60,716 nucleotides of DNA, from the NCBI GenBank assembly GCA_964536215.1, contig CAZHWT010000004.1, positions 1 to 60,716 of the forward strand. The letters are read 5' to 3'. The stretch is from an uncultured Candidatus Saccharibacteria bacterium. GTDB lineage: Bacteria > Patescibacteriota > CAZHWT01. The translations under genes were made by a program, and so were the position numbers. Under the pieces are notes generated by a model. It saw nothing but the letters and a program-made list of their open reading frames with translations, did not search any database and was not told the origin of the DNA. Shown one piece after another: positions 20 to 57,341 of this stretch (position 1 is the first letter of the stretch; each line of letters starts with the position of its first letter).

Positions 20-36
20 CCCCGATTTAATCGGGG
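20..36. repeat. hairpin family B (CCCCGATTNAATCGGGG), copy 1
   Basis: 7-bp stem CCCCGAT/ATCGGGG with a 3-nt loop; the same unit recurs 8 more times in the window. Confidence 0.85.
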
Positions 37-350
37 TTTACGGTTTACAGTTTACAGTTTACGATTTACGATTAGCGATTAGCGATTAGCGATTAGCGAT
101 TAGCGATTAGCGATTAGCGATTAAGGGAATTTTAGCACTGGCGGTATTGTTTATCTTTTGCGTCTTGTACCTTTATTTGGCATTTGGACTCTTCTTCCTT
201 GCCATTTAACTCGCCTACTTGCCTACTCCCGACTTGCCAACTTGCCTACTTGTTGACTGTTATTAGTTACTTTCCGCCAGAGGCGGACAGGAGTTACTTG
301 GCTATTGGTTTGTTTCCGCCAGAGGCGGACAGGCTATGCTTCGTTATTCG
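37..350 (+). repeat. mosaic intergenic element, copy A (heptad array + 95-bp core + octamer tract + 2 GC hairpins)
   Basis: GTTTACR/CGATTTA heptads 37-68; (CGATTAG)x7 69-117; core 118-210; TGCCTACT-type octamers 212-258; TCCGCCAGAGGCGGA at 273-287 and 315-329; ATGCTTCGTTATTCG 336-350. Confidence 0.9.
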
Positions 351-388
351 CTCCCGCAACTCGATTCAGCTATCACTACGAGCAAACG

Positions 389-5526: not shown

Positions 5527-5794
5527 TGCGATATGCGATTTACGATGAACGATTAGCGATTAGCGATTAGCGATTAGCGATTAGCGATTAGCGATTAGCG
5601 GAATTTTAGCCCTGGTGGTGTTTATTTTTGCATCTTAAACCTTTGTTTGGCATTTGAATTCTTGTATCTTGGCATTTAACGCCTACTCGTCAACTTCCGC
5701 CAGAGGCGGACAGACCATGCTTCGTTATTCGTCTATTCGTACCCGTACTCCGTGCTTCTTACCCCTTCCACCTGCAGCCTCCAGACTGCATACC
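5527..5794 (+). repeat. mosaic intergenic element, copy B
   Basis: CGAT-type heptads 5527-5549; (CGATTAG)x7 5550-5598; core 5599-5680; hairpin TCCGCCAGAGGCGGA 5696-5710; ATGCTTCGTTATTCG; box CCTTCCACCTGCAGCCTCCAGACTGCATACC 5764-5794. Confidence 0.9.
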
Positions 5795-5843
5795 ACTCGC
5801 CTATCTCCCGCTCTCATCCCCCCCATCGTAATTATCCTAAGAG

Positions 5844-5849
5844 TATAAT
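5844..5849 (+). promoter_or_regulatory. -10 box TATAAT, 6 nt upstream of the ATG at 5856 (leaderless candidate)
   Basis: GAGTATAATACCTCTATG; no SD sequence present. Confidence 0.45.
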
Positions 5850-6464: not shown

Positions 6465-6536
6465 TAGCCACTACGCATCCAGAACTAAGAGTAATTAGCT
6501 ATTCGTATATTCGTTAGTTCGTCTATTCGCAGGAGA

Positions 6537-6645
6537 TTAACGATTAAGAGAATTTTAGCACTAGTGGTGGGGTTTTACTTTTTGCGTCTTGAACCTTTGT
6601 TTGGCATTTTGACTCTTGTTCCTTGGCATTTACATACCTACTCGA
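6537..6645 (+). repeat. mosaic intergenic element, copy C (core only, one heptad)
   Basis: TTAACGATTAAGAGAATTTTAGCACTAGTGGTG...TTGGCATTTTGACTCTTGTTCCTTGGCATTTACATACCTACTCG between convergent genes. Confidence 0.88.
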
Positions 6646-7659: not shown

Positions 7660-8619
7660 TCATGCAAATTCCGGCAAAATCTCCTCTGCATAAAACTTTA
7701 TAAACTCCTCCTGATTCGGCCCTACCTGATGTATGTACACATGGGTAAACCCCGCATCGATATACTGCTGAATCTGCTCTAAATGCCGCTTCTTATTCGC
7801 CCCGCATACCATCGACTCCCCAATCTTGTCTGGCGTCACATCCTTAGCTAATTGTTCAAAATGCAGCGGCATGGGTAGCTCTTGCGAAGCTTGTCCAGAT
7901 ATAGCTGATGTTGGCCAATACTTGGCCGCTGTCTGCATCGCCTTTTTCTCATCCACGTCATAACACACACTAGCCTGACCATAAATTGGCTTTCCTTCAC
8001 CGCCTGACTCTTTAAACACATCAATTACTTCCTTATTCGGTGAAGTTGTCACCAAGCCATCGCCAATCTCTCCAGCCAATTGAGCCGATTTAGTCCCCAT
8101 GGCCGACACTGTAATCTTCGGTAATGTTTGGGGCAGAGAATAAATTCTAGCCTGATCAACCGTAAAATAAGCTCCTGGAATATCCGTCACTCGCCCTTCC
8201 CATACCTCTCGGATAATCTCCACCGCCTCCTGCAGCATTTCCATTCGCCGATTTATATTCGGCCACCCTTCTCCCACCACATGCTCATTCAAATTCTCAC
8301 CCGTGCCCACCCCAAAAATAAATCTATCTTCTAACAAGCAGGCTGTAGTCGCTGCCGCCTGAGCCAAAATGACCGGATGAATCCGCATAATTGGACACGT
8401 CACACCCGTCATCACCGGAATCTTTTTGGTCGACTGACTAATCGCTCCCAACACCGCCCAGACAAATCCACTCTGCCCCTGCGCATCTATCCACGGATGA
8501 AAATGATCCGAAATGCTCAAAAACCCAAATCCCGCCTCCTCGGCCAACCGCGCATTCTTCACCAACACCTCCGGCCGATGCTCCTCGCTAGACAATGTGT
8601 ATCCAATCGAAACAGCCAT
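7660..8619 (-). CDS. LLM-class F420-dependent oxidoreductase (G6PDH-related family)
   Basis: N-terminus IGYTLSSEEH..AEEAGFGFLSISDHFHPW is typical of the family; GGAGG RBS. Confidence 0.82.
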   Translation of the reverse strand: MAVSIGYTLSSEEHRPEVLVKNARLAEEAGFGFLSISDHFHPWIDAQGQSGFVWAVLGAISQSTKKIPVMTGVTCPIMRIHPVILAQAAATTACLLEDRFIFGVGTGENLNEHVVGEGWPNINRRMEMLQEAVEIIREVWEGRVTDIPGAYFTVDQARIYSLPQTLPKITVSAMGTKSAQLAGEIGDGLVTTSPNKEVIDVFKESGGEGKPIYGQASVCYDVDEKKAMQTAAKYWPTSAISGQASQELPMPLHFEQLAKDVTPDKIGESMVCGANKKRHLEQIQQYIDAGFTHVYIHQVGPNQEEFIKFYAEEILPEFA

Positions 8620-8680: not shown

Positions 8681-8695
8681 TCCGCCAGAGGCGGA
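8681..8695. repeat. hairpin family A (TCCGCCAGAGGCGGA)
   Basis: 6-bp GC stem with a 3-nt loop; 8 intact copies in the window. Confidence 0.85.
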
Positions 8696-8774
8696 CAAGC
8701 CTAGAACCTTACAATGATACTATCACATTACAGCACACCACAAGAGACAGGCTAAAATTATTTATATGTAAAGT

Positions 8775-11095: not shown

Positions 11096-11107
11096 TCCCC
11101 CACTTGT

Positions 11108-11153
11108 GTCATTCTCGACCAGACCCCGATTGAATCGGGGTGAATCGAGAATC
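11108..11153 (+). repeat. hairpin C (GTCATTCTCGAC...TCGAGAATC) with hairpin B nested in its loop
   Basis: B unit CCCCGATTGAATCGGGG at 11124-11140 sits between the C arms. Confidence 0.85.
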
Positions 11154-11243
11154 TCTTGCGAGGCTATTGGTTATTAGTTACTTAGTTACTTGGATTAGGG
11201 TTGCGAAGTATGATATACGATTTGCGATCTACCGATTGCTCTC

Positions 11244-11327
11244 GTTGTCATTCTCGACCCGATCGAGAATCCCTTGCAGGGCTATTGGTTATTTCCTCCA
11301 CTGGCGAAACAGAGTTACTTGGACAAG
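11244..11327 (+). repeat. C-A composite element (C hairpin + TTGCAGGGCTATTGGTTATTTCC + degenerate A hairpin + AGAGTTACTTGGACAAG)
   Basis: colinear with the reverse complements of 19582-19660 and 23695-23743 + 23843-23870. Confidence 0.85.
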
Positions 11328-11393: not shown

Positions 11394-12338
11394 CTAATTC
11401 TGCCCTCGCTTAACCTGCTCCGTCTTAACCGTCATATTCCGCTCGGTGTGGCGGTTAATCTCTTGCGCCGTCACCATAGCATTGCGCATCTGCTCTTGCA
11501 GATCATTCATACCAGACGGTGAGTGAGGTACCAAAATGGTATTTGTCTTACTGGCGTTGCTCACTTCCTTAAGCGTATCAAAATACTGGGTCATCAAAAC
11601 CAAATTCATCACTTCCTGAGCCGAGGTTCCATCTACCGAAGTACTAAACTCTTCCACTGACTCACGCAACCCCTCAATAATCGCCTTGCGCTGGTTGGCG
11701 ATACCTTGCCCCTGCAACGCTTTACTCTCAGCCTCACCCTCGGCCGCCTTAACTACTCTAATCTTCTCCGCCTCCGCCTGCTGAATAGCCGCCTCCCGCA
11801 ACCGTTGCGACGCATTAATCTCATTCATGCTACTCTTTACTTTTGAGTCAGGATCAATATCAGTCACTAGTGTCTTCATAATCCCATAGCCAAAATCATC
11901 CATCACCTGATCCAGCTCACCCTTAACCGCCTGAGCAATATCATCTTTCATCAAGAACAGCTCATCCAAGGTAATCCCTGGCACTCGAGCCCGAACCGTA
12001 TCAAAAACAAACGAAGTAATTTGAGCTTGAGGACTTTGTAGACGATAAAAAGCATCCACCACCTTATTCGACAAAACGTGGTACTGCACACTAACAATCA
12101 CGAACACAAACACGTTATCTTTAGTCTTGGTCTCTACTCGCACATCCAACTGCTGCACCCGCAGACTCAATCGCCCAGCTACCCGGTCAATCAACGGGAT
12201 TTTAAAATTTAACCCCGCCGGAGCTATCCGTACAAACTTACCAAACCGTTCTATTACTGCCGCCGTCTGCTGCTTAACTGTAAACAACCCAGTCAACAAT
12301 AATAAAACAATAACCGCTAAAACAATACCAAAGAACAT
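11394..12338 (-). CDS. SPFH/band-7 (stomatin/prohibitin-like) membrane protein
   Basis: N-terminal TM span, then an SPFH core and a coiled-coil AEAEKIRVVKAAEGEAES segment; AAGGAG RBS. Confidence 0.9.
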   Translation of the reverse strand: MFFGIVLAVIVLLLLTGLFTVKQQTAAVIERFGKFVRIAPAGLNFKIPLIDRVAGRLSLRVQQLDVRVETKTKDNVFVFVIVSVQYHVLSNKVVDAFYRLQSPQAQITSFVFDTVRARVPGITLDELFLMKDDIAQAVKGELDQVMDDFGYGIMKTLVTDIDPDSKVKSSMNEINASQRLREAAIQQAEAEKIRVVKAAEGEAESKALQGQGIANQRKAIIEGLRESVEEFSTSVDGTSAQEVMNLVLMTQYFDTLKEVSNASKTNTILVPHSPSGMNDLQEQMRNAMVTAQEINRHTERNMTVKTEQVKRGQN

Positions 12339-12428
12339 ATATCTCCTTTTCTCCAGCCATAGCCGGTTTATGCCTGTAGTATAGCACGGAAGCGAACAAT
12401 ATTTGCACGCCCGCTCCCGTTCGGTTCA

Positions 12429-12719
12429 CGATTAGCGATTAGCGATTAGCGATTAGCGATTAGTGATTAGTGATTAGCGATTAAGGGAATTTTAGCACTA
12501 GTGGTGTTTTATTTTTGCATCTTGAACCTTTATTTGGCATTTGGACTCTTGTTCCTTGGCATTTGCATACCCTACTCGCCTACTTGTCGACTCTGTTATT
12601 GGTTATTAGCTACTTTCCGCCAGAGGCGGACAGGAGTTAGTTCGTTTATTCGTTGATTCGATGCTCCGTTATTCGAACCTCGTGTCCCCCCTTCCTCCTG
12701 CAGCCTCCGGTTGCATACC
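12429..12719 (+). repeat. mosaic intergenic element, copy D (most complete)
   Basis: (CGATTAG)x5 + (TGATTAG)x2 + CGATTAA 12429-12484; core 12478-12570; octamers; hairpin A 12616-12630; TTCGTTTATTCG; box CCTTCCTCCTGCAGCCTCCGGTTGCATACC 12690-12719. Confidence 0.92.
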
Positions 12720-12746
12720 GTATACTACAAACACCACGCTATCAAC

Positions 12747-13526
12747 ATGATCATCCTCCTCCACTCCTCCAAAACCATGCGCTCTTCGCATCATTCACCA
12801 GAATTGACGAAACCTCAGCTTTTCGACAAAGCTAGCCAGCTTGGGTCCTATTTAAAAACTCTCTCGCCAAAGCAAATTGCCAAGACTATGCAGGTATCTC
12901 CCGCCTTGGCCAGCAAAACACACACCATCATTTCAAATTGGGATACAAATCCGGATAACCAATCCGCTGCCATCGACAGTTTTATCGGCGATATCTACAG
13001 CGGTTTGCAGGCCGATACATTCTCGATAGATGACCGCCACTACGCTCAAAAACACCTCCGCATTCTCTCTGGCCTCTATGGCATTCTCCGCCCACTCGAC
13101 GGTGTCATGCCATACCGGCTCGAAATGGCCTACAAACTTCCCAGTCCAAAATTCACCAACCTTTACAACTTCTGGGGAACCTCAATAGTCGACACTCTGC
13201 CCCAAGGCGAACTCATCGTCAATACCTCATCCGTCGAATACACTCGCACCATCACCCCCTACATCAATCCCAACAACCTTATCACTCCAACCTTCCTAAC
13301 CCTCAATCCCAAAACCAATCAACCGACCCAAGTTGTCGTTCACACCAAAATCGCCCGCGGCGCCTTCGCCCGCTGGCTCATTACCACCAAAACGACAGAC
13401 CCAACCCAGCTAGACCAATTCAACCTCCTCAACTACCACTTCGATCCAACCCGCAGCACTCTCCAAAATCCTACCTATATTTGCCCAACCTTCGGCGGCA
13501 TCGGCCTCAGCATGCGACTAAAGTAA
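12747..13526 (+). CDS. yaaA: YaaA/DUF328 peroxide-stress protein
   Basis: N-terminus MIILLHSSKTM and the overall length match the UPF0246 family; upstream ORF-track residues lie inside the repeat. Confidence 0.85.
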   Translation: MIILLHSSKTMRSSHHSPELTKPQLFDKASQLGSYLKTLSPKQIAKTMQVSPALASKTHTIISNWDTNPDNQSAAIDSFIGDIYSGLQADTFSIDDRHYAQKHLRILSGLYGILRPLDGVMPYRLEMAYKLPSPKFTNLYNFWGTSIVDTLPQGELIVNTSSVEYTRTITPYINPNNLITPTFLTLNPKTNQPTQVVVHTKIARGAFARWLITTKTTDPTQLDQFNLLNYHFDPTRSTLQNPTYICPTFGGIGLSMRLK

Positions 13527-15686: not shown

Positions 15687-15904
15687 AGCTCTACTCCTTT
15701 GAGCTATAATCTCTGCACCTCAGAGATATCTCATGACCCGAATTATAGCACTAGTATAGAAAAGGACAAAAAGTACGCTTATCGGCTGAGCTGTATTTTT
15801 ACCGCGTCTCCAATCAACTCTTCCACCAAAGCCAAAATCAAACGCATTGCCTGACCCGTCAGAGAACTGAAAAAGGCTAATCTCAAATAGTTATACTCAA
15901 ATAT

Positions 15905-18480: not shown

Positions 18481-18517
18481 TTTAACACCGTTAAACTTAT
18501 TTGTTAAGTGGTATAAT
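18481..18517 (+). promoter_or_regulatory. palindrome TTTAACACCGTTAAA + 16 nt + TGGTATAAT promoter
   Basis: palindrome 18481-18495; TATAAT 18512-18517; in-frame GTG at 18525 lies 7 nt after the -10 box. Confidence 0.6.
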
Positions 18518-18524
18518 CACTCCC

Positions 18525-19571
18525 GTGACCACCTATCTCTCCACCTTTATTACCGGCTTTGGCGATATTGTCGAAAGTGCCATCCGCAAAAACGTTAAGG
18601 ACGCTCAAATCAATCTGCTTCTAGATGGTCTGATCATTTTTCAATCCAAAGCCAACATTAACCAGATTCGTCAGCTCAATTTTCTAAACAATAGCTTTAT
18701 CGTCCTGGCTCACAACACCAAGACTTCTGCGGACCCATTACAAGACATACTTCTCCAAGCCCTCAAACAAACCAACGTCGAAAAACAATTCCTGGCCGCC
18801 ATGCCCCATCGCCCAACCTCATTCCGAGTCAAAACCTTCCGAGAAAACCAGCCCGTCGCTGTCGACAAAACTCTCCTCTCCAAGCTGGAAAAGCAGCTCA
18901 GCCAAATCCACTATCTCCACCTCAACAAAAGCACCCCGCAAATAGAATTCTGGTGCTTTACCCGCCGCGAAGGCCACGCCTTCTTTGCTCTCAAAATTAC
19001 TCGCACCGAAAACTACGAAAAAACTCTTTCCAAAGGCGAACTCCGCCCCGAACTGGCCAACCTTCTCTGCCTCTTATCCGAACCCAAATCCACCGATATC
19101 TTCCTTGATCCCTTTGCCGGCTTTGGCTCCATCCCCGCTGCCCGAGCCAAACTCCTCCCCGCTGCCAAAATCATCGCCGGGGACAATAATCCGAACCTCA
19201 TCAAAACCCTCCAGGCCAAATTCAAATCCATCAAACATCCTATTACCATCACCAAGCTCGACGCTCTCAGCACCCCATTCGAATCCCAATCCATTACCAA
19301 AATCGTTACCGATCCCCCTTGGGGCTTCTTTGAAAAAGATCTTAATATCAACCAGCTCTATCAAGACATGCTGACCGAATTCACTCGCATCCTCAAACCT
19401 AACGGCATAGCCATCATCTTAACTGCCCAAAAAGAAACATTCACCAACGTACTTCAAAACCATCCCAGCCTCAGCCTCATTTCCGAACACACCACCCTTG
19501 TCTCCGGCAAAAAAGCCAGCGCCTATAAACTGAGATTAGTAGATCGCAGATCGTTAATCGTAGATCGTTAA
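18525..19571 (+). CDS. THUMP-domain class I SAM-dependent RNA methyltransferase
   Basis: SAM motif I DPFAGFGS and catalytic DPPWG; N-terminal THUMP-like region; start inferred from the promoter (ORF track TTG at 18501); the last 10 codons lie in a heptad array. Confidence 0.8.
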   Translation: MTTYLSTFITGFGDIVESAIRKNVKDAQINLLLDGLIIFQSKANINQIRQLNFLNNSFIVLAHNTKTSADPLQDILLQALKQTNVEKQFLAAMPHRPTSFRVKTFRENQPVAVDKTLLSKLEKQLSQIHYLHLNKSTPQIEFWCFTRREGHAFFALKITRTENYEKTLSKGELRPELANLLCLLSEPKSTDIFLDPFAGFGSIPAARAKLLPAAKIIAGDNNPNLIKTLQAKFKSIKHPITITKLDALSTPFESQSITKIVTDPPWGFFEKDLNINQLYQDMLTEFTRILKPNGIAIILTAQKETFTNVLQNHPSLSLISEHTTLVSGKKASAYKLRLVDRRSLIVDR

Positions 19572-19581
19572 TCGTTAATCG
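19540..19581 (+). repeat. heptad array (TAGATCG/TTAATCG) x6 spanning the methyltransferase stop codon
   Basis: TAGATCG CAGATCG TTAATCG TAGATCG TTAATCG TTAATCG; reverse complement of the CGAT family; encodes VDRRSLIVDR*. Confidence 0.85.
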
Positions 19582-19700
19582 CCAAACCAATCCAAGTAAC
19601 TCTTGTCCGCCTCTGGCGGAAATAACCAATAACCCTGCAAGGGATTCTCAATCAGGTCGAGAATGACAACAAACAGAGCGCTTCACCCTTCAACCTTCAA
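19582..19700 (-). repeat. C-A composite element plus shared tail AACAAACAGAGCGCTTCACCCTTCAACCTTCA
   Basis: hairpin A 19596-19610; hairpin C 19631-19657; the tail is identical to 23866-23901. Confidence 0.88.
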
Positions 19701-19727
19701 CCTTCAACCTGTAACCTATAACCTATA
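19677..19727 (+). repeat. heptad array CCTTCAA x3, CCTGTAA, CCTATAA x3
   Basis: seven tandem 7-mers read directly. Confidence 0.85.
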
Positions 19728-22397: not shown

Positions 22398-22464
22398 TTT
22401 GCGGTAGAAAAACCTACTCGCCTACTCCCGACTTGCCTACTACTCATACTTCGCGCCTCTATCC

Positions 22465-22494
22465 CCTTACTCCTATAGCCTCCAGTTGCACGCC
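22465..22494 (+). repeat. third copy of the CCTTMCTCCT-GCCTCCAGTTGCA box
   Basis: CCTTACTCCTATAGCCTCCAGTTGCACGCC; compare 5764-5794 and 12690-12719. Confidence 0.7.
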
Positions 22495-22646: not shown

Positions 22647-22683
22647 TTTAACACTGTTAAATTTTTATGTCAAGTGGTATAAT
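22647..22683 (+). promoter_or_regulatory. palindrome TTTAACACTGTTAAA + 16 nt + TGGTATAAT promoter of the TetR gene
   Basis: palindrome 22647-22661; TATAAT 22678-22683; the ATG at 22690 lies 6 nt after the -10 box; geometry matches 18481-18517. Confidence 0.65.
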
Positions 22684-23666: not shown

Positions 23667-23743
23667 ATCGTATATCGTTAATCGTAAATCGTAACTTGTC
23701 CAAGTAACTCCTGTCCGCCTCTGGCGGAAAGTAACTAATAACC
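23667..23743 (-). repeat. heptads (ATCGTWW x4) + A half of the C-A composite
   Basis: ATCGTAT ATCGTTA ATCGTAA ATCGTAA, then CTTGTCCAAGTAACTCCTGTCCGCCTCTGGCGGAAAGTAACTAATAACC (hairpin A 23714-23728). Confidence 0.85.
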
Positions 23744-23842
23744 AGATTGGTGAGTGGTGGGTAGTGAGTTGTACCCGAATTACGCAGTACGAATTACGAA
23801 GTACGCGAGCGAATAACGAATAAACGAAGATGCGTATATGTA

Positions 23843-23926
23843 GGGATTCTCGATCGGGTCGAGAATGACAACAAACAGAGCGCTTCACCCTTCAACCTTC
23901 ACCCTTCAACCCCGATTCAGTCTGGG
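23843..23926 (-). repeat. C half of the C-A composite + shared tail + degenerate B hairpin
   Basis: GGGATTCTCGATCGGGTCGAGAATGACAACAAACAGAGCGCTTCACCCTTCAACCTTCA; B-like CCCCGATTCAGTCTGGG 23910-23926; separated from the A half by a ~100-bp insert. Confidence 0.85.
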
Positions 23927-30497: not shown

Positions 30498-31760
30498 CTA
30501 ACTCGTGCTGCCCTCAATCAGCTCAACCGGCGGTGCATCAGGCTCATTCGCCGCCAACAACTCCTCCGACTCTCGCGTCGCTTCAGGTGGCGTCATAAAT
30601 ATCGCTCCCAGCATCATCACTATCGATGTCACCAAAATTACGTAAAACAAAATCCCATCATCAAATGTTTTAAACTGCATCGCCTGAGGGATCTGGTAAA
30701 AAAGCACAATGGTTACCAGACCTCGTGGAGTGTAAAACAGTTCCGGCAATACATGTCCTCGACTAAAAACCTGTAAATACATAAAGCGCACCACATACAA
30801 CGCCACTACAATTACCGTTCCGACTGCAATGACCTTTAAACTACCTAACGAATGCAGATTAATCGTGTACCCAAATAAGGTAAAAAACAGAGTCCGGATC
30901 AAAAAGGCTGACTCAGCAGTTACCAATCGCAACGAATAGGTGACATCTTTAACCGCTGCATAGGGGAAAATCTCTCGCGTAAACCGCACTTGGATTTTTG
31001 ACCAGTTATTAATGATCAAGCCAAAAACCAGAATAACCAGCAAGGAAGGGAAACTAAACGTATGCCCCAAAGCATATACCAACAGTAACGAAGCAAATAA
31101 CAAGAAAATTTTAATATCAATGGTAATTTTGGTTAACAACCCCAGTAAAGCCACCGATAGTACAATCGAAACCAAAATAGCCAACCCAATACTGCCAAAG
31201 CGAACTACTACCGTCCCAGCCGAAATAGCACTGCCAGCAATTAAAAAGTTGAATACCAGGATACCTAAAATATCCGACAAAGAAGACTCGTACGTTAAAA
31301 ATTCCCGCTTTTTTTCATTTAGCGATCCTACGCTCGAAGCCACAATCGTACTACTAATAATTGACAGCGGTACTGCGTACACTAAACTAACCAACCATGG
31401 CTGCTGCAACCAAAAGTGAACAATCGAGCTAGTTGCCACCATCGACAAAAACAACACAAACAACGACGACCCCGCCGCATTCCCTATCAACTTCAACTTA
31501 TCCCGAGAGAATTCTAAATCCAGCCCAGCCTCAAGCAAAATAATAATTAAACCAATCACCCCAATAAACTCAACAAAAGCTTGAGGCACTGTCACATAAA
31601 AATCTTGCCAAATTGCCAGCTCCCGAATCCCAATACCCAAAAAGAGTAGCAGTAAAACTGTTGGAATACGATTTTTTTCCGAAATAAGTGAGAAAAAATA
31701 AGACACCACTATCAGACTGCACAACACGATGATAATGGTATAAACGTCAATCCCAGGCAC
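30498..31760 (-). CDS. cation:proton antiporter (Na+/H+ exchanger family), paralog 1
   Basis: 420 aa, about 11-12 TM spans; about 92% identical to the 33672-34934 product by hand alignment. Confidence 0.85.
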   Translation of the reverse strand: MPGIDVYTIIIVLCSLIVVSYFFSLISEKNRIPTVLLLLFLGIGIRELAIWQDFYVTVPQAFVEFIGVIGLIIILLEAGLDLEFSRDKLKLIGNAAGSSLFVLFLSMVATSSIVHFWLQQPWLVSLVYAVPLSIISSTIVASSVGSLNEKKREFLTYESSLSDILGILVFNFLIAGSAISAGTVVVRFGSIGLAILVSIVLSVALLGLLTKITIDIKIFLLFASLLLVYALGHTFSFPSLLVILVFGLIINNWSKIQVRFTREIFPYAAVKDVTYSLRLVTAESAFLIRTLFFTLFGYTINLHSLGSLKVIAVGTVIVVALYVVRFMYLQVFSRGHVLPELFYTPRGLVTIVLFYQIPQAMQFKTFDDGILFYVILVTSIVMMLGAIFMTPPEATRESEELLAANEPDAPPVELIEGSTS

Positions 31761-33671: not shown

Positions 33672-34934
33672 CTAAATATTGGATTCAATCAGCTCAACCG
33701 GCGGCATCTCAGCAGTTGAATCTGTCCCCTCGTCCCCTTCCGCTTGACGCGTCGCTTCGGGCGGCGTCATAAACATCGCCCCCAACATCATCACTATCGA
33801 TGTCACCAAAATAACGTAAAATAAAATCCCATCATCAAAGGCCTTAAACTGCATCGCCTGGGGGATCTGATAAAACAACACAATCGTTACCAAACCCCGA
33901 GGCGTATAAAACAACTCCGGCAGCACATGTCCCCGACTAAAAATCTGTAGATACATAAACCGCACCACATACAACACCACCACAATCGCTGTTCCCACCG
34001 CAATCACCTTCAAACTACCCAACAAATGCAGGTTAATCGTATAGCCAAATAAAGTAAAAAACAGAGTCCGGACTAAAAAGGCCGACTCAGCTGTAACTAG
34101 TCGCAACGAATAGGTTACATCTTTAACCGCCGTATAGGGGAAAATCTCTCGCGTAAACCGAACTTGAATTTTTGACCAGTTATTAATAATCAAGCCAAAA
34201 ATCAGAATAACCAGTAATGAGGGGAAACTAAACGTATGCCCCAAGGCATACACTAATAGCAGCGAGGCAAACAACAAGAAAATTTTAATATCAATCGTAA
34301 TCTTGGTTAACAGTCCCAACAAAGCCACCGATAGCGCAATCGAAACCAAGATAGCCAACCCAATACTACCAAAGCGAACCACTACCGTCCCGGCCGAAAT
34401 AGCGCTGCCAGCAATTAAAAAGTTAAATACTAAAATGCCTAAAATATCTGACAATGATGATTCGTAGGTTAAAAACTCCCGCTTTTTCTCATTCAACGAC
34501 CTCACACTCGAAGCCACAATCGTACTACTTATAATGGATAATGGTACCGCATACACCAAACTAACCAACCATGGTTGCTGCAGCCAAAAATGAACAATCA
34601 ATCCAGTCGCCGCCATCGACAAAACCAGCACAAATAAAGACGACCCAGCCGCATTCCCTATTAGTTTTAATTTATCACGAGAGAATTCTAAGTCTAGCCC
34701 AGCCTCAAGCAAAATAATTATTAAACCAATCACCCCAATAAACTCAACAAACGATTGAGGCACCGTCACATAAACGCCTTGCCAAATCGCCAGCTCCCGA
34801 ATCCCAATGCCCAAAAAGAGTAATAGCAAGACGGTTGGAATACGAGATTTTTCAGAAATAAGAGAGAAAAAATAAGACACCACTATCAAGCTACACAGCA
34901 CAATGATAATGGTATAAACATCAATCCCAGGCAC
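33672..34934 (-). CDS. cation:proton antiporter, paralog 2
   Basis: 19 substitutions in the first ~398 residues relative to paralog 1, then a divergent C-terminal tail. Confidence 0.85.
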   Translation of the reverse strand: MPGIDVYTIIIVLCSLIVVSYFFSLISEKSRIPTVLLLLFLGIGIRELAIWQGVYVTVPQSFVEFIGVIGLIIILLEAGLDLEFSRDKLKLIGNAAGSSLFVLVLSMAATGLIVHFWLQQPWLVSLVYAVPLSIISSTIVASSVRSLNEKKREFLTYESSLSDILGILVFNFLIAGSAISAGTVVVRFGSIGLAILVSIALSVALLGLLTKITIDIKIFLLFASLLLVYALGHTFSFPSLLVILIFGLIINNWSKIQVRFTREIFPYTAVKDVTYSLRLVTAESAFLVRTLFFTLFGYTINLHLLGSLKVIAVGTAIVVVLYVVRFMYLQIFSRGHVLPELFYTPRGLVTIVLFYQIPQAMQFKAFDDGILFYVILVTSIVMMLGAMFMTPPEATRQAEGDEGTDSTAEMPPVELIESNI

Positions 34935-35451: not shown

Positions 35452-35544
35452 AGTGCTGAAGTTTAAAATAAAACTCCCCTCCTATATAAGTGTAACAAAA
35501 CTTTGGCCCAACAAACAAAAAGACTAACCCACACGACATTCTGA

Positions 35545-35631
35545 GTATCCCAGATAGATTCTACGGCCTTCCACTTATGTCATTCCCGCGAAAGCGGGAA
35601 TCTGATTCTCGATCAGGTCGAGAATGACAAA
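35545..35631 (+). repeat. D-C hairpin composite with 40-nt leader
   Basis: CAGATAGATTCTACGGCCTTCCACTTATGTCATTCCCGCGAAAGCGGGAATCTGATTCTCGATCAGGTCGAGAATGAC; an inverted copy lies at 50268-50374. Confidence 0.9.
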
Positions 35632-35715
35632 GAAGATAGTTGCCAGCTGGGGATGAATGAAAAAGTGAGTGTGGGGCAGACAAAAAGACCTGGTAGATTT
35701 GAACGAGCAACCTTG

Positions 35716-50186: not shown

Positions 50187-50267
50187 AGTATAGCACTAAC
50201 CATACCTAGATACCTCAATCAACCCCCCACATCCACATTTCATCTACCCCAGCTGACAACCATCTTC

Positions 50268-50374
50268 CTTGTCATTCTCGACTGGACCCCGATCATATCG
50301 GGGTGAATCGAGAATCAGATTCCCGCTTTCGCGGGAATGACATAAGTGGAAGGCCGTAGAATCTATCTGAGATA
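50268..50374 (-). repeat. D-C hairpin composite (inverted copy) with hairpin B nested in the C loop
   Basis: the reverse complement matches 35545-35631 over about 70 nt; B unit CCCCGATCATATCGGGG at 50287-50303 replaces the 3-nt C loop. Confidence 0.9.
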
Positions 50375-50404
50375 ATCAAAAAAGTGCATGTGGGTCAGCT
50401 CAAT

Positions 50405-56575: not shown

Positions 56576-56649
56576 TGGCTGGCGGACCTGGATTTGAACC
56601 AAGAATACCTCCTCCAGAGGGAGGCGTGATGCCATTTCACCATCCGCCA
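56576..56649 (-). tRNA. tRNA-Gln (anticodon CTG), CCA-encoded
   Basis: hand-folded cloverleaf: acceptor TGGCGGA/TCCGCCA, D stem GTGA/TCAC, anticodon stem CCTCC/GGAGG with loop CTCTGGA, T stem CTTGG/CCAGG with TTCAAAT loop, then G-CCA. Confidence 0.85.
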
Positions 56650-56846
56650 ACATACAGCTTCGCTGTAGAATATTGAATTAGGAATTTTGAATAATGAATA
56701 TTCTTTATTCAGGATTCTTAATACCTACCTGGCCTGGCCAAGCTCTGGGATTGTACCAAAAATCACTGCTAAGCTCAAGAAAAACTGCTTATACCAATAA
56801 ATATCCATTTAAATAGCTATTTATTCGTATCCAGCCTAACCCATCG

Positions 56847-57035
56847 CTACACTTCTTCTGGCATAACTGCCCAGCAGATCATATACATAACAAACCCCGG
56901 GAAAAACCCGGTTACCAGAATAAATAGCGCCCAGGCAATCCGCGCCAATGCCACGTCCACCCCAAAATAAGCCGCCATACCTGCTGCCACCCCAGCCACC
57001 ATTCGATCACTTTTAGAACGCATCAATCGTTTCAT
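56847..57035 (-). CDS. PspC-domain membrane protein
   Basis: RSKSDRMVAGVAAGMAAYFGVDVALARIAWALFIL matches the PspC domain pattern. Confidence 0.78.
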   Translation of the reverse strand: MKRLMRSKSDRMVAGVAAGMAAYFGVDVALARIAWALFILVTGFFPGFVMYMICWAVMPEEV

Positions 57036-57154
57036 AACTATCTTTCCTCTATATCTATTTTATATTGTTCAACTATACATATAAACCTCAGGATTGTACC
57101 AAAAAGCCACCTCAGGCGCAAAACCGCCTATCTCCTCTGGCAGAAACAACCAAT

Positions 57155-57341
57155 AGACGAGTAGGCAAGTAGGGTACGCAAATGCCAAGGTGCAAGAGTC
57201 CAACTGCCAAATACGGTTAATCGCTCACTGCAAATCGTTAATCGTAAATCGTAAACCCCGATTCAATCGGGGTCAAGTCGAGAATGACAAAGAATAAACG
57301 ATTTGCGATTATCGATTAACAGCCTGTCCGCCTCTGGCGGA
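57155..57341 (-). repeat. mosaic intergenic element, copy E (inverted and rearranged)
   Basis: octamers + last ~40 nt of the core (57174-57214); CGAT heptads; hairpin B 57256-57272; half C (GTCGAGAATGAC); heptads; hairpin A 57327-57341. Confidence 0.8.

Follow-up and report, generated by a model that had tools for sequence, protein, structure and literature searches.

Contig CAZHWT010000004.1, from an uncultured Candidatus Saccharibacteria bacterium, carries between its genes five copies (A-E) of a mosaic that surrounds an AT-rich core of ~95 bp; copy D lies at 12429-12719. On balance, the mosaic is probably a lineage-specific non-coding repeat akin to the Neisseria intergenic mosaic elements (NIMEs), the bacterial interspersed mosaic elements (BIMEs) and the combination of small dispersed repeats (SDRs) with short tandemly repeated repetitive sequences (STRRs), with blocks that were copied between intergenic regions and then remodelled. 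A preliminary description had seen a single element of unrecognised architecture, and had offered as explanations a small-RNA gene family, a protein-binding platform, or a new mobile or recombinogenic element. The last of these comes nearest in spirit to what is argued below, but more than one element is involved (one of the hairpins has both filled and empty sites) and the architecture is recognisable, with parallels in the NIMEs of Neisseria, the BIMEs of E. coli and the STRR+SDR landscape of Nostoc. "The window" is the complete contig of 60,716 bp, and all genome-level statements are limited to these 60.7 kb.

The core family and its repeat setting

When copy D (12380-12760) is compared with the window by BLASTN, it retrieves A (62-299, 83% identity over 239 nt, E 6e-66), B in two pieces (5536-5696, 85% over 164 nt, E 5e-48, and a 3' part at 5695-5794, 75% over 106 nt), C (6535-6644, 90% over 111 nt, E 4e-36) and, on the minus strand, E (57213-57156, 90% over 58 nt, E 4e-17). 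A profile of the core recovers exactly the same five copies with nhmmer (E 1e-33 to 2e-15) and no further copy in the window or in ~260 other loci. There are thus four full cores on the + strand and one half-core on the - strand, as the preliminary description had it, and inspection of 12429-12719 likewise bears out the parts that it listed for D: heptads, core, octamers, hairpin, octamers and C-rich box (Table 1). The cores are 81-90% identical to one another. They lie between divergent genes (B and D), between convergent genes (C) and 3' of a gene (A and E); B is upstream of a - strand gene for an RRM protein, and D of a - strand gene for a Band7/SPFH protein. The order of parts along ~290 bp is common to B and D in full, which argues that blocks were copied whole and then remodelled. 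The C-rich 3' box of D recurs in B and, loosely, at 22464-22483, and in all three places a + strand gene begins directly downstream. Four copies out of five share a strand and fall within a stretch of 12.6 kb (p ~0.01-0.05 by a rough binomial estimate), a clustering that is suggestive of local copying rather than random transposition.

Tandem Repeats Finder (TRF) confirms the CGATTAG arrays of A, B and D (Table 1) and the octamer arrays. They belong to a wider landscape. Of the contig, 19% is intergenic; tandem or dispersed repeats account for at least 26% of that intergenic DNA, and 95% of the repeat bases fall there (124 of 2,754 lie inside genes); for the tandem arrays considered separately, 920 of 970 bases are intergenic. 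With 36 arrays of 7- and 8-mers per 100 kb, the window exceeds the other loci compared, which have 9-13 per 100 kb. The heptad arrays are 91-100% homogeneous although the cores beside them differ by 10-19%, from which it follows that the arrays turn over by slippage after the block has been copied. The hairpin, the octamers and the heptamers are found alone in many other intergenic regions of the window, and two more dispersed mosaic families (19640-19709 and 23842-23911, 96% identical; 35524-35676 and 50225-50398, 77%) are built of the same hairpins together with other heptads (CTTCAAC, AACCTAT). Hence the core family is one among several mosaics. In one place repeat DNA reaches into a gene: the 3' end of a methyltransferase ORF (18501/18525-19571) overlaps an array of ATCGTTA heptads at 19539-19581, so that repeat DNA makes up its last ~10 codons and its stop.

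Table 1. Positions of the mosaic copies, their parts and related hairpins in the window (hp1 and hp2 are the two small hairpins treated below)
Feature	Position	Strand	Details
Copy A, whole mosaic	20-360	+	Contig start falls inside the mosaic
A, hp2	20-36
A, GGTTTAC array	35-70		x5
A, CGATTAG array	69-123		x7.9; TRF
A, core	124-214
A, octamers	209-252
A, hp1 (two copies)	273-291 and 315-333		Followed by TTCGTTATTCG
Copy B	5535-5794	+
B, CGATTAG array	5535-5600		x9.4; TRF
B, core	5600-5682
B, hp1	5696-5714		Variant ...ACAGA; followed by TTCG octamers
B, 3' box	5763-5794
Copy C	6535-6645	+	Two degenerate heptads, core, one octamer; no hairpin; between convergent genes
D, CGATTAG array	12429-12483	+	x7.9, 95% matches; TRF
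D, AT-rich core (~95 bp)	12484-12578	+	39% GC
D, extended -10-like TGCTAAAAT	12489-12497	-	Within the core
D, box TTTGGCATTT	12533-12542	+
D, box CTTGGCATTT	12555-12564	+
D, hairpin-bearing site module	12579-12615	+	CCTACTYG octamers, then TATTGGTTATTAGCTACTT
D, hp1 (TCCGCCAGAGGCGGACAGG)	12616-12634	+	19-nt insertion hairpin; 74% GC
D, TTCGTTAT-type octamer array	12641-12675	+	TRF
D, C-rich 3' box	12689-12719	+	CCCTTCCTCCTGCAGCCTCC..TGCATACC
Copy E, inverted	57154-57341	-
E, core (3' half only)	57154-57219	-
E, heptads	57232-57255	-
E, hp2	57256-57272	-	In half a dRS3-like arm
E, hp1	57323-57341	-
Solo hp1 in another mosaic	19602-19620	-	Heptads, hp1, dRS3-like hairpin, CTTCAAC/AACCTAT heptads
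Further solo hp1	8681-8699	+
Further solo hp1	23710-23728	-
Empty hp1 site TTAGTTACTT^AGTTACTTGG	11174-11193	+	Alignment of window hp1 sites
dRS3-consensus hairpins ATTCCCGCGAAAGCGGGAAT and ATTCTCGATCAGGTCGAGAAT, without hp2	35582-35625
Paralogue of the preceding, with hp2 in loop	50270-50338

Two small features lie near copy E: a tRNA gene at 56579-56649 (-), and an unlisted small ORF at 56830-57036 (-), ~120 nt downstream of E, which by eye specifies a PspC-like membrane peptide (MKRLMRSKSDRMVAGVAAGMAAYFGVDVALARIAWALFILVTG...).

The host may be placed, with moderate confidence, in the Patescibacteria or candidate phyla radiation (CPR), because named homologues of two window proteins (51-57% identity) come from Candidatus Saccharimonadales, Patescibacteria, Woesebacteria, Curtissbacteria and Roizmanbacteria. 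A cyanobacterial origin, considered on account of the STRR/HIP1 association, is rejected in view of these homologues, of the surface proteins encoded in the window (LPXTG and choice-of-anchor-U) and of the HIP1 site GCGATCGC, which occurs 0 times in the window. The nearest relatives in a set of 5.8 billion proteins are a YaaA on metagenome contig L127 (67% identity) and an M32 peptidase on contig L249 (71%). L127 is partly syntenic with the window (UDG ... YaaA ... DUF1801), has almost no tandem repeats and has a spacer of 28 bp upstream of YaaA, against 408 bp in the window; none of the repeat modules is present on L249. The repeat system is therefore specific to the lineage of the window. 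CPR genomes are regarded as small and streamlined, and repeat-rich intergenic DNA is unexpected in this phylum; here a quarter of the intergenic DNA consists of 7/8-mers, palindromes and a 95-bp repeat, in mosaic modules that are absent from the nearest available relatives.

Two other features of the contig may be recorded in passing. Its GC skew, (G-C)/(G+C), is -0.25 across the window and lies between -0.10 and -0.35 in each 4-kb segment without ever changing sign; it is unrelated to gene orientation and amounts to -0.20 in intergenic DNA. Third codon positions give -0.52 for genes on the + strand and, for those on the - strand, +0.45 when the coding strand is read. The asymmetry between the strands is of mitochondrial magnitude. 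Relatives have skews of -0.15 (L127), -0.17 (L128) and +0.01 (L249). The window also holds two Na+/H+ exchanger genes, at 30498-31760 (-) and 33672-34934 (-), which are 86% identical over 1,288 bp, with the gene of a GH130-like phosphorylase and a small ORF between them; the pair is read as a recent local duplication.

The small hairpins hp1 and hp2

The hairpin of copy D, hp1, consists of the palindrome TCCGCC-AGA-GGCGGA and the tetranucleotide CAGG; as read in the element it appears as TCCGCCAGAGGCGGA. The window has 8 copies, all intergenic, where 0.00 are expected. What marks hp1 as something apart from the mosaic is the site at 11174-11193, which is paralogous to the filled sites at 259-301 (copy A) and 23742-23700 (reverse complement) and differs from them in that exactly 19 nt are missing. 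Judged by this comparison, hp1 is a separate 19-nt insertion that appears to be gained or lost independently of the core. The preliminary description had the parts of the mosaic in fixed order within one element, and in this it has to be amended: hp1 comes and goes by itself, and arrays and hairpins occur without the core. The pair of hp1 copies in A (273, 315) is the only doublet in the window, and it is direct, not inverted. That hp1 might be an intrinsic terminator is ruled out by the absence of a T-run on either strand.

A second hairpin, hp2 (CCCCGATTNAATCGGGG; 7 copies in the window), has an inserted size of ~22 nt. It sits in the loop of dRS3-like hairpins at 50270-50316 and 11107-11153 and is absent from their paralogues at 35605-35625 and 11250-11270. 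Hairpins of the type that accommodates it are in marked excess: 9 fit ATTCYC-N8-22-GRGAAT where 0.21 are expected, and 2 of these, at 35582 and 50319, fit the strict dRS3 consensus ATTCCC-N8-GGGAAT. Variants of the form ATTCTC-N9-GAGAAT are also present.

Outside the window, hp1 is widespread. The 20-mer made of T and hp1 has at least 120 exact matches on metagenome contigs of 29-68% GC (among them L187:1764-1783 and L242:9708-9727), in 113-118 distinct contexts according to the way in which these are de-duplicated, where chance would supply one or a few (a rough estimate, the size of the collection not being given). It has 0 matches among the phages of IMG/VR and none in 117 control loci. Among the matches listed, ~74% do not fall within any ORF of 100 aa or more, the gene next upstream is co-oriented with hp1 in 50 of 68, and 20 of 118 (17%) are within 200 nt of a tRNA gene, 18 of these 20 on the same strand; the same listed loci hold 12 near-variants with 1-3 substitutions. 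In at least 8 contigs hp1 interrupts the tRNA D-arm sequence TAGCT^CAGT, in what appear to be truncated 5' fragments of tRNAs upstream of intact tRNA genes. A second filled-and-empty pair comes from contig L248, where an unrelated repeat of ~130 nt has hp1 in one copy and lacks it in the other (1-135 against 7750-7880), the difference being again exactly 19 nt; in the filled copy hp1 lies in the loop of GTCCCGC-TTC-GCGGGAC. The idea that hp1 is the repetitive extragenic palindrome (REP) of a neighbouring REP-associated tyrosine transposase (RAYT) was rejected: a RAYT is found at 1 of the 120 listed loci, and it is flanked by unrelated GTAG-type REPs of its own.

One locus of this set deserves separate mention. 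At L154:3859-4110 a tRNA-like 5' part (GCGCCGAAGTAACTCAG, hp1, GGTCCGAGC) and a matching 3' part (GTCGTGGGTTCGAATCCCACCTTCGGCTCA) are separated by ~200 nt with an intact tRNA-Thr between them, and the same 5' motif is met again at L154:4300 and on contigs L206 and L218. The arrangement resembles a tRNA gene that is split or heavily interrupted.

With its clean filled and empty sites and its more than 100 independent contexts, hp1 offers a handle for finding the enzyme that moves such sequences. A far-reaching proposal, which we think unlikely, is that an undescribed machinery shared across phyla seamlessly inserts hairpins of ~19-22 nt (hp1 and hp2) and, together with slippage, builds NIME- and SDR-like recombination platforms, the core family among them, in a CPR genome that is otherwise streamlined. 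Sites typical of such insertion would be those after T, in hairpin loops, at tandem-repeat junctions and in tRNA D-arm sequence. If the proposal were true, hp1 would rank with the smallest and most widespread mobile sequences so far known.

The nature of the core

In the 3' half of the core lie two TTGGCATTT boxes. Their start-to-start distance is exactly 22 bp in all five copies (5 occurrences of the two-box pattern against 0.00 expected from shuffles), and the 12-nt spacer between them is in every case free of indels. The preliminary description had two boxes about 22 bp apart in each core: the spacing stands, the boxes themselves less so, since the second box of A reads TTGCCATTT and the first box of E TTTGGCAGTT. 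The palindrome that it ascribed to every core is present as CACTAGTG in C and D only; A has CACTGGCG and B has CCCTGGTG. Variable columns number 2 of 20 in the boxes and 17 of 32 in the rest of the core 3' half (Fisher p=0.003, a post hoc figure, the boxes having been chosen after viewing). A protein-binding or promoter role is conceivable in view of this low variation and of the exact spacing; against it, TTGGCATTT is found nowhere outside the cores in the 60-kb window.

On the - strand of the core an extended -10-like sequence, TGCTAAAAT, is kept in A, C and D; its TG is lost in B, and the -10 half is absent from E. Motifs of the TGnTATAAT or TATAAT type also stand 7-60 nt before likely start codons at 15742-15750 (-), 18509-18517 (+), 22675-22683 (+) and 5840-5848 (+), the one at 18509 being 8 nt before an ATG at 18525 (a start called on Logan contigs). 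The recurrence of TGnTAWAAT before starts suggests extended -10 promoters with leaderless or very-short-leader mRNAs and little use of Shine-Dalgarno sequences. A consensus scan of 12300-12800, the copy D region and the only stretch so scanned, yields neither a sigma-70-type promoter nor an intrinsic terminator. Motifs for sigma-54 (GG-N10-GC), CIRCE (half-site TTAGCACT only) and IHF were considered and discarded, spacing or second half being absent.

As an RNA gene or a classical transposable element the core makes a poor candidate. It matches no Rfam family even at E<=1 (the check that the preliminary description had proposed), no copy folds better, on either strand, than its dinucleotide shuffles do (z -0.6 to +1.7), and the consensus structure, at -5.0 or -4.5 kcal/mol, has a covariation contribution of about zero, it being understood that with five copies and no close relatives both covariation tests and orientation statistics are weak. 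No conserved ORF is found in any frame of the core. An inverted-repeat search of A, B and D gave internal hairpins and no terminal pair common to the copies, and the aligned flanks of A-E have no direct repeat at the borders of core or block, these borders being arrays of differing kinds. A Pfam or NCBIfam scan of the ~30 larger window ORFs turned up no transposase. The absence of an ORF, of terminal inverted repeats and of a nearby transposase, noted earlier by inspection, thus agrees with the searches. Taken together, the lack of an Rfam match, of a stable fold, of covariation, of an ORF, of terminal inverted repeats and of target duplications leaves a small-RNA gene or a classical MITE (miniature inverted-repeat transposable element) unsupported.

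Nor has the core been met elsewhere. The strict two-box pattern has 0 matches in the JGI/ENA metagenomes and 0 in IMG/VR; the core with its 3' part has no plasmid match; a loose two-box pattern (18 specified bases, variable gap) finds in genome contigs chance matches only, none homologous to the core. Concatenated six-frame peptides of the core, aimed at spurious ORFs on other copies, retrieve nothing from the 5.8-billion-protein set, and neither the mosaic sequences nor the run accessions turned up in the literature. Derivation of the core from a decayed heptad array is rejected, there being no autocorrelation at lag 7. A small ORF (MLRYS...PLPPAAS) that can be read in A, B and D was rejected as a gene; the copies stay similar in DNA across a frameshift, and A departs from the others after its fifth codon. 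Two ORFs of this type lie inside the mosaic at 12661-12750 and 5717-5848, one closing with an ATGA that overlaps the start of YaaA, the other stopping 8 nt short of the next gene; they are judged to be non-coding, and they may exert an effect like that of an upstream ORF on the genes that follow.

The events that would generate such a patchwork can be set out as follows. The block that is copied, up to ~290 bp, would comprise CGATTAG heptads, the AT-rich ~95-bp core, CCTACTYG octamers, the hairpin site, TTCGTTAT octamers and the C-rich box. Intergenic regions with arrays and hairpins already in common would receive copies from one another through ectopic recombination or gene conversion or, alternatively, through the action of a site-specific or single-strand recombinase on the small palindromes; for NIME arrays, a recombination or recombinase mechanism of this kind was proposed by Bentley et al. 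(PMC1797815). After copying, the 7/8-mer arrays would expand and homogenise through slippage, the small GC palindromes hp1 (19 nt) and hp2 (~22 nt) would be seamlessly gained or lost, and deletions, of which E and C are examples, would trim the core. On this view the core would correspond to the RS "spacer" of NIMEs and be neither an RNA gene nor an autonomous transposon; a function in the cell, whether through a protein on the two TTGGCATTT boxes, an outward promoter or otherwise, would be of secondary importance.

Several observations weigh against this account. No empty site has been found for the core itself, so that its copying is deduced from multiplicity alone. No recombinase or transposase is seen in the 60.7 kb. 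The identity of the copies (81-90%) excludes a recent burst. The core is flanked by hp1 or hp2 and not by dRS3 pairs, which makes the NIME analogy structural and inexact. The low variation of the boxes and their exact spacing in five copies hint at constraint, and hence at function. Finally, the orientation of hp1 relative to genes, which for the window was read by eye, differs between the window and the metagenomes.

If function were primary, the core might be a portable cis-regulatory module, a doubtful possibility though one to be taken seriously. A regulator bound to the direct-repeat boxes (AAATGCCAA on the - strand, 22 bp, or two helical turns, apart, and upstream of TGCTAAAAT) would activate a - strand promoter that reads through the heptads into the leftward gene. 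The constraint on the boxes, the retention of the -10-like sequence in three copies, the positions of B and D upstream of - strand genes and the occurrence of TGnTAWAAT directly before other gene starts (15742, 18509, 22675) all fit such a module. Yet C lies between convergent genes, where the promoter would be antisense; B has lost the TG of the motif and E lacks the -10 half; the three intact matches are copies of one repeat and do not count independently; the boxes are in no other intergenic region of the window; the promoter scan of the copy D region was negative; and leaders as long as ~150 nt (D) and ~350 nt (B) would be needed. The copies are also multiple, intergenic and conserved, as would be expected if the core gave rise to a family of small RNAs or of RNA elements acting in cis, and one could point to the possible extended -10 on the - strand and to the RRM RNA-binding protein gene that adjoins B; such a family, first offered in the preliminary description, is nonetheless very improbable in view of the Rfam and folding results, of the negative terminator scan (copy D being the sole copy scanned) and of the tolerance of the core for indels and for reduction to a half-copy.

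Mobility of the mosaic as a unit is distinctly unlikely as well. The likeliest form would be a non-autonomous single-strand element of IS200/IS605 or RAYT type, resembling a palindrome-associated transposable element (PATE) or a REPIN, with subterminal hairpins hp2 on the left and hp1 on the right and a Y1/HUH enzyme acting in trans. The lack of terminal inverted repeats and target duplications is what that family would lead one to expect, hp2 is indeed 5' and hp1 3' in A and E, and hp1 combines a palindrome with a conserved tetranucleotide (CAGG) and inserts seamlessly. But B, C and D have no left hairpin and C has neither; the hairpins occur alone and are gained and lost independently of the core; no Y1 transposase was found in the window; the single RAYT among the 120 listed metagenome loci has REPs of its own; the two hp1 copies in A form a direct and not an inverted doublet; and the copies are locally clustered and old. 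Their left junctions are not conserved, PATE insertion being 3' of a fixed tetra- or pentanucleotide. That the whole mosaic is an artefact of assembly or sequencing, through chimeric joins or collapsed repeats, is scarcely credible, even though the contig starts inside copy A and short-read contigs do break at repeats. Logan assemblies of more than 20 independent runs (SRR11843814-38) match the window in unique flanks, one contig at 99.9% and the other checked ones at 100%. Those aligned to the window terminate within hairpin copies at 12613 and 19621, and those with the M32 gene all begin ~177 nt upstream of it, at ~23872 by arithmetic (unaligned), which is within another repeat module. The repeats are therefore real and multi-copy, and no product of a single assembly; in practice they break short-read assemblies of the host organism. 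Collapsed duplicates would not diverge by 10-19%, the modules are sensibly placed between genes, and hp1 is present in many unrelated public assemblies.

Relation to known repeat systems

The closest structural analogue of the mosaic appears to be the NIME. In NIMEs, AT-richer RS repeats of ~50-150 bp alternate with GC-rich inverted repeats of ~20 bp (dRS3), with a GC "wave" and arrays that are dynamic; they are regarded as substrates of recombination or targets of a recombinase, not as genes, and are reported to be Neisseria-specific (PMC1797815). The likeness lies in the alternation of GC-rich small repeats (hp1, 74% GC) with an AT-richer spacer (core, 36-41%; window, 47%) and in the excess of dRS3-consensus hairpins. 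The differences are that cores are bracketed by hp1, hp2 and 7/8-mer arrays and not by dRS3 pairs (only E has half a dRS3-like arm nearby), that the phylum is another one, and that neither long dRS3-RS-dRS3 arrays nor an associated prophage recombinase is seen.

REPs and BIMEs, known from Enterobacteria and Pseudomonas, are short extragenic GC palindromes with a conserved tetranucleotide, which form non-coding, high-copy mosaics with other motifs (PMC3116915). As a short extragenic palindrome with an adjacent CAGG in 8 window copies, hp1 resembles them. In contrast to REPs and REPINs, there is no RAYT in the window and the sole hp1 doublet is direct; REPs are species-specific, yet hp1 recurs unchanged on contigs that differ greatly; and BIMEs have neither a 95-bp core nor heptad arrays. 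Pneumococcal BOX (boxA-boxB(n)-boxC) and neisserial Correia elements are modular intergenic repeats of 100-300 bp with variable internal tandem units, which can carry promoters and affect neighbouring genes; they have complementary ends or terminal inverted repeats (with a TA duplication in Correia) and stable folds. The mosaic shares with them the modular intergenic build and the variable tandem units, and differs in a core that has neither terminal inverted repeats nor a stable fold. REP/BIME, BOX and Correia thus have modularity in common with the mosaic, and each fails in at least one defining feature. MITEs are set apart by their shared terminal inverted repeats and target-site duplications, which the mosaic lacks, and the subterminal hairpins of PATEs have a counterpart around A and E and none around B, C and D.

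In behaviour, the closest analogue would seem to be the intergenic landscape of Nostocaceae, in which, as Elhai et al. reportedly described in 2008 (Genome Res 18:1484), tandem heptamers (STRRs) are accompanied by SDRs of ~20-27 nt, inserted precisely and often nested within other repeats and hairpins. Like SDRs, hp1 and hp2 appear to be precisely present or absent between otherwise homologous sequences and, like STRRs, the 7-nt units run head-to-tail and are confined mostly to intergenic DNA. The window differs in phylum, in its lack of HIP1 and in the sequences themselves, and hp1, at 19 nt, is found verbatim across contigs of 29-68% GC. We know of no enzyme that moves SDR-like repeats. Such repeats are reported in no lineage besides Nostocaceae (PMC5861425). 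If these comparisons are apt, both NIME-type mosaics, said to be Neisseria-specific, and very small mobile repeats, said to be specific to Nostocaceae, would extend far beyond their known hosts.

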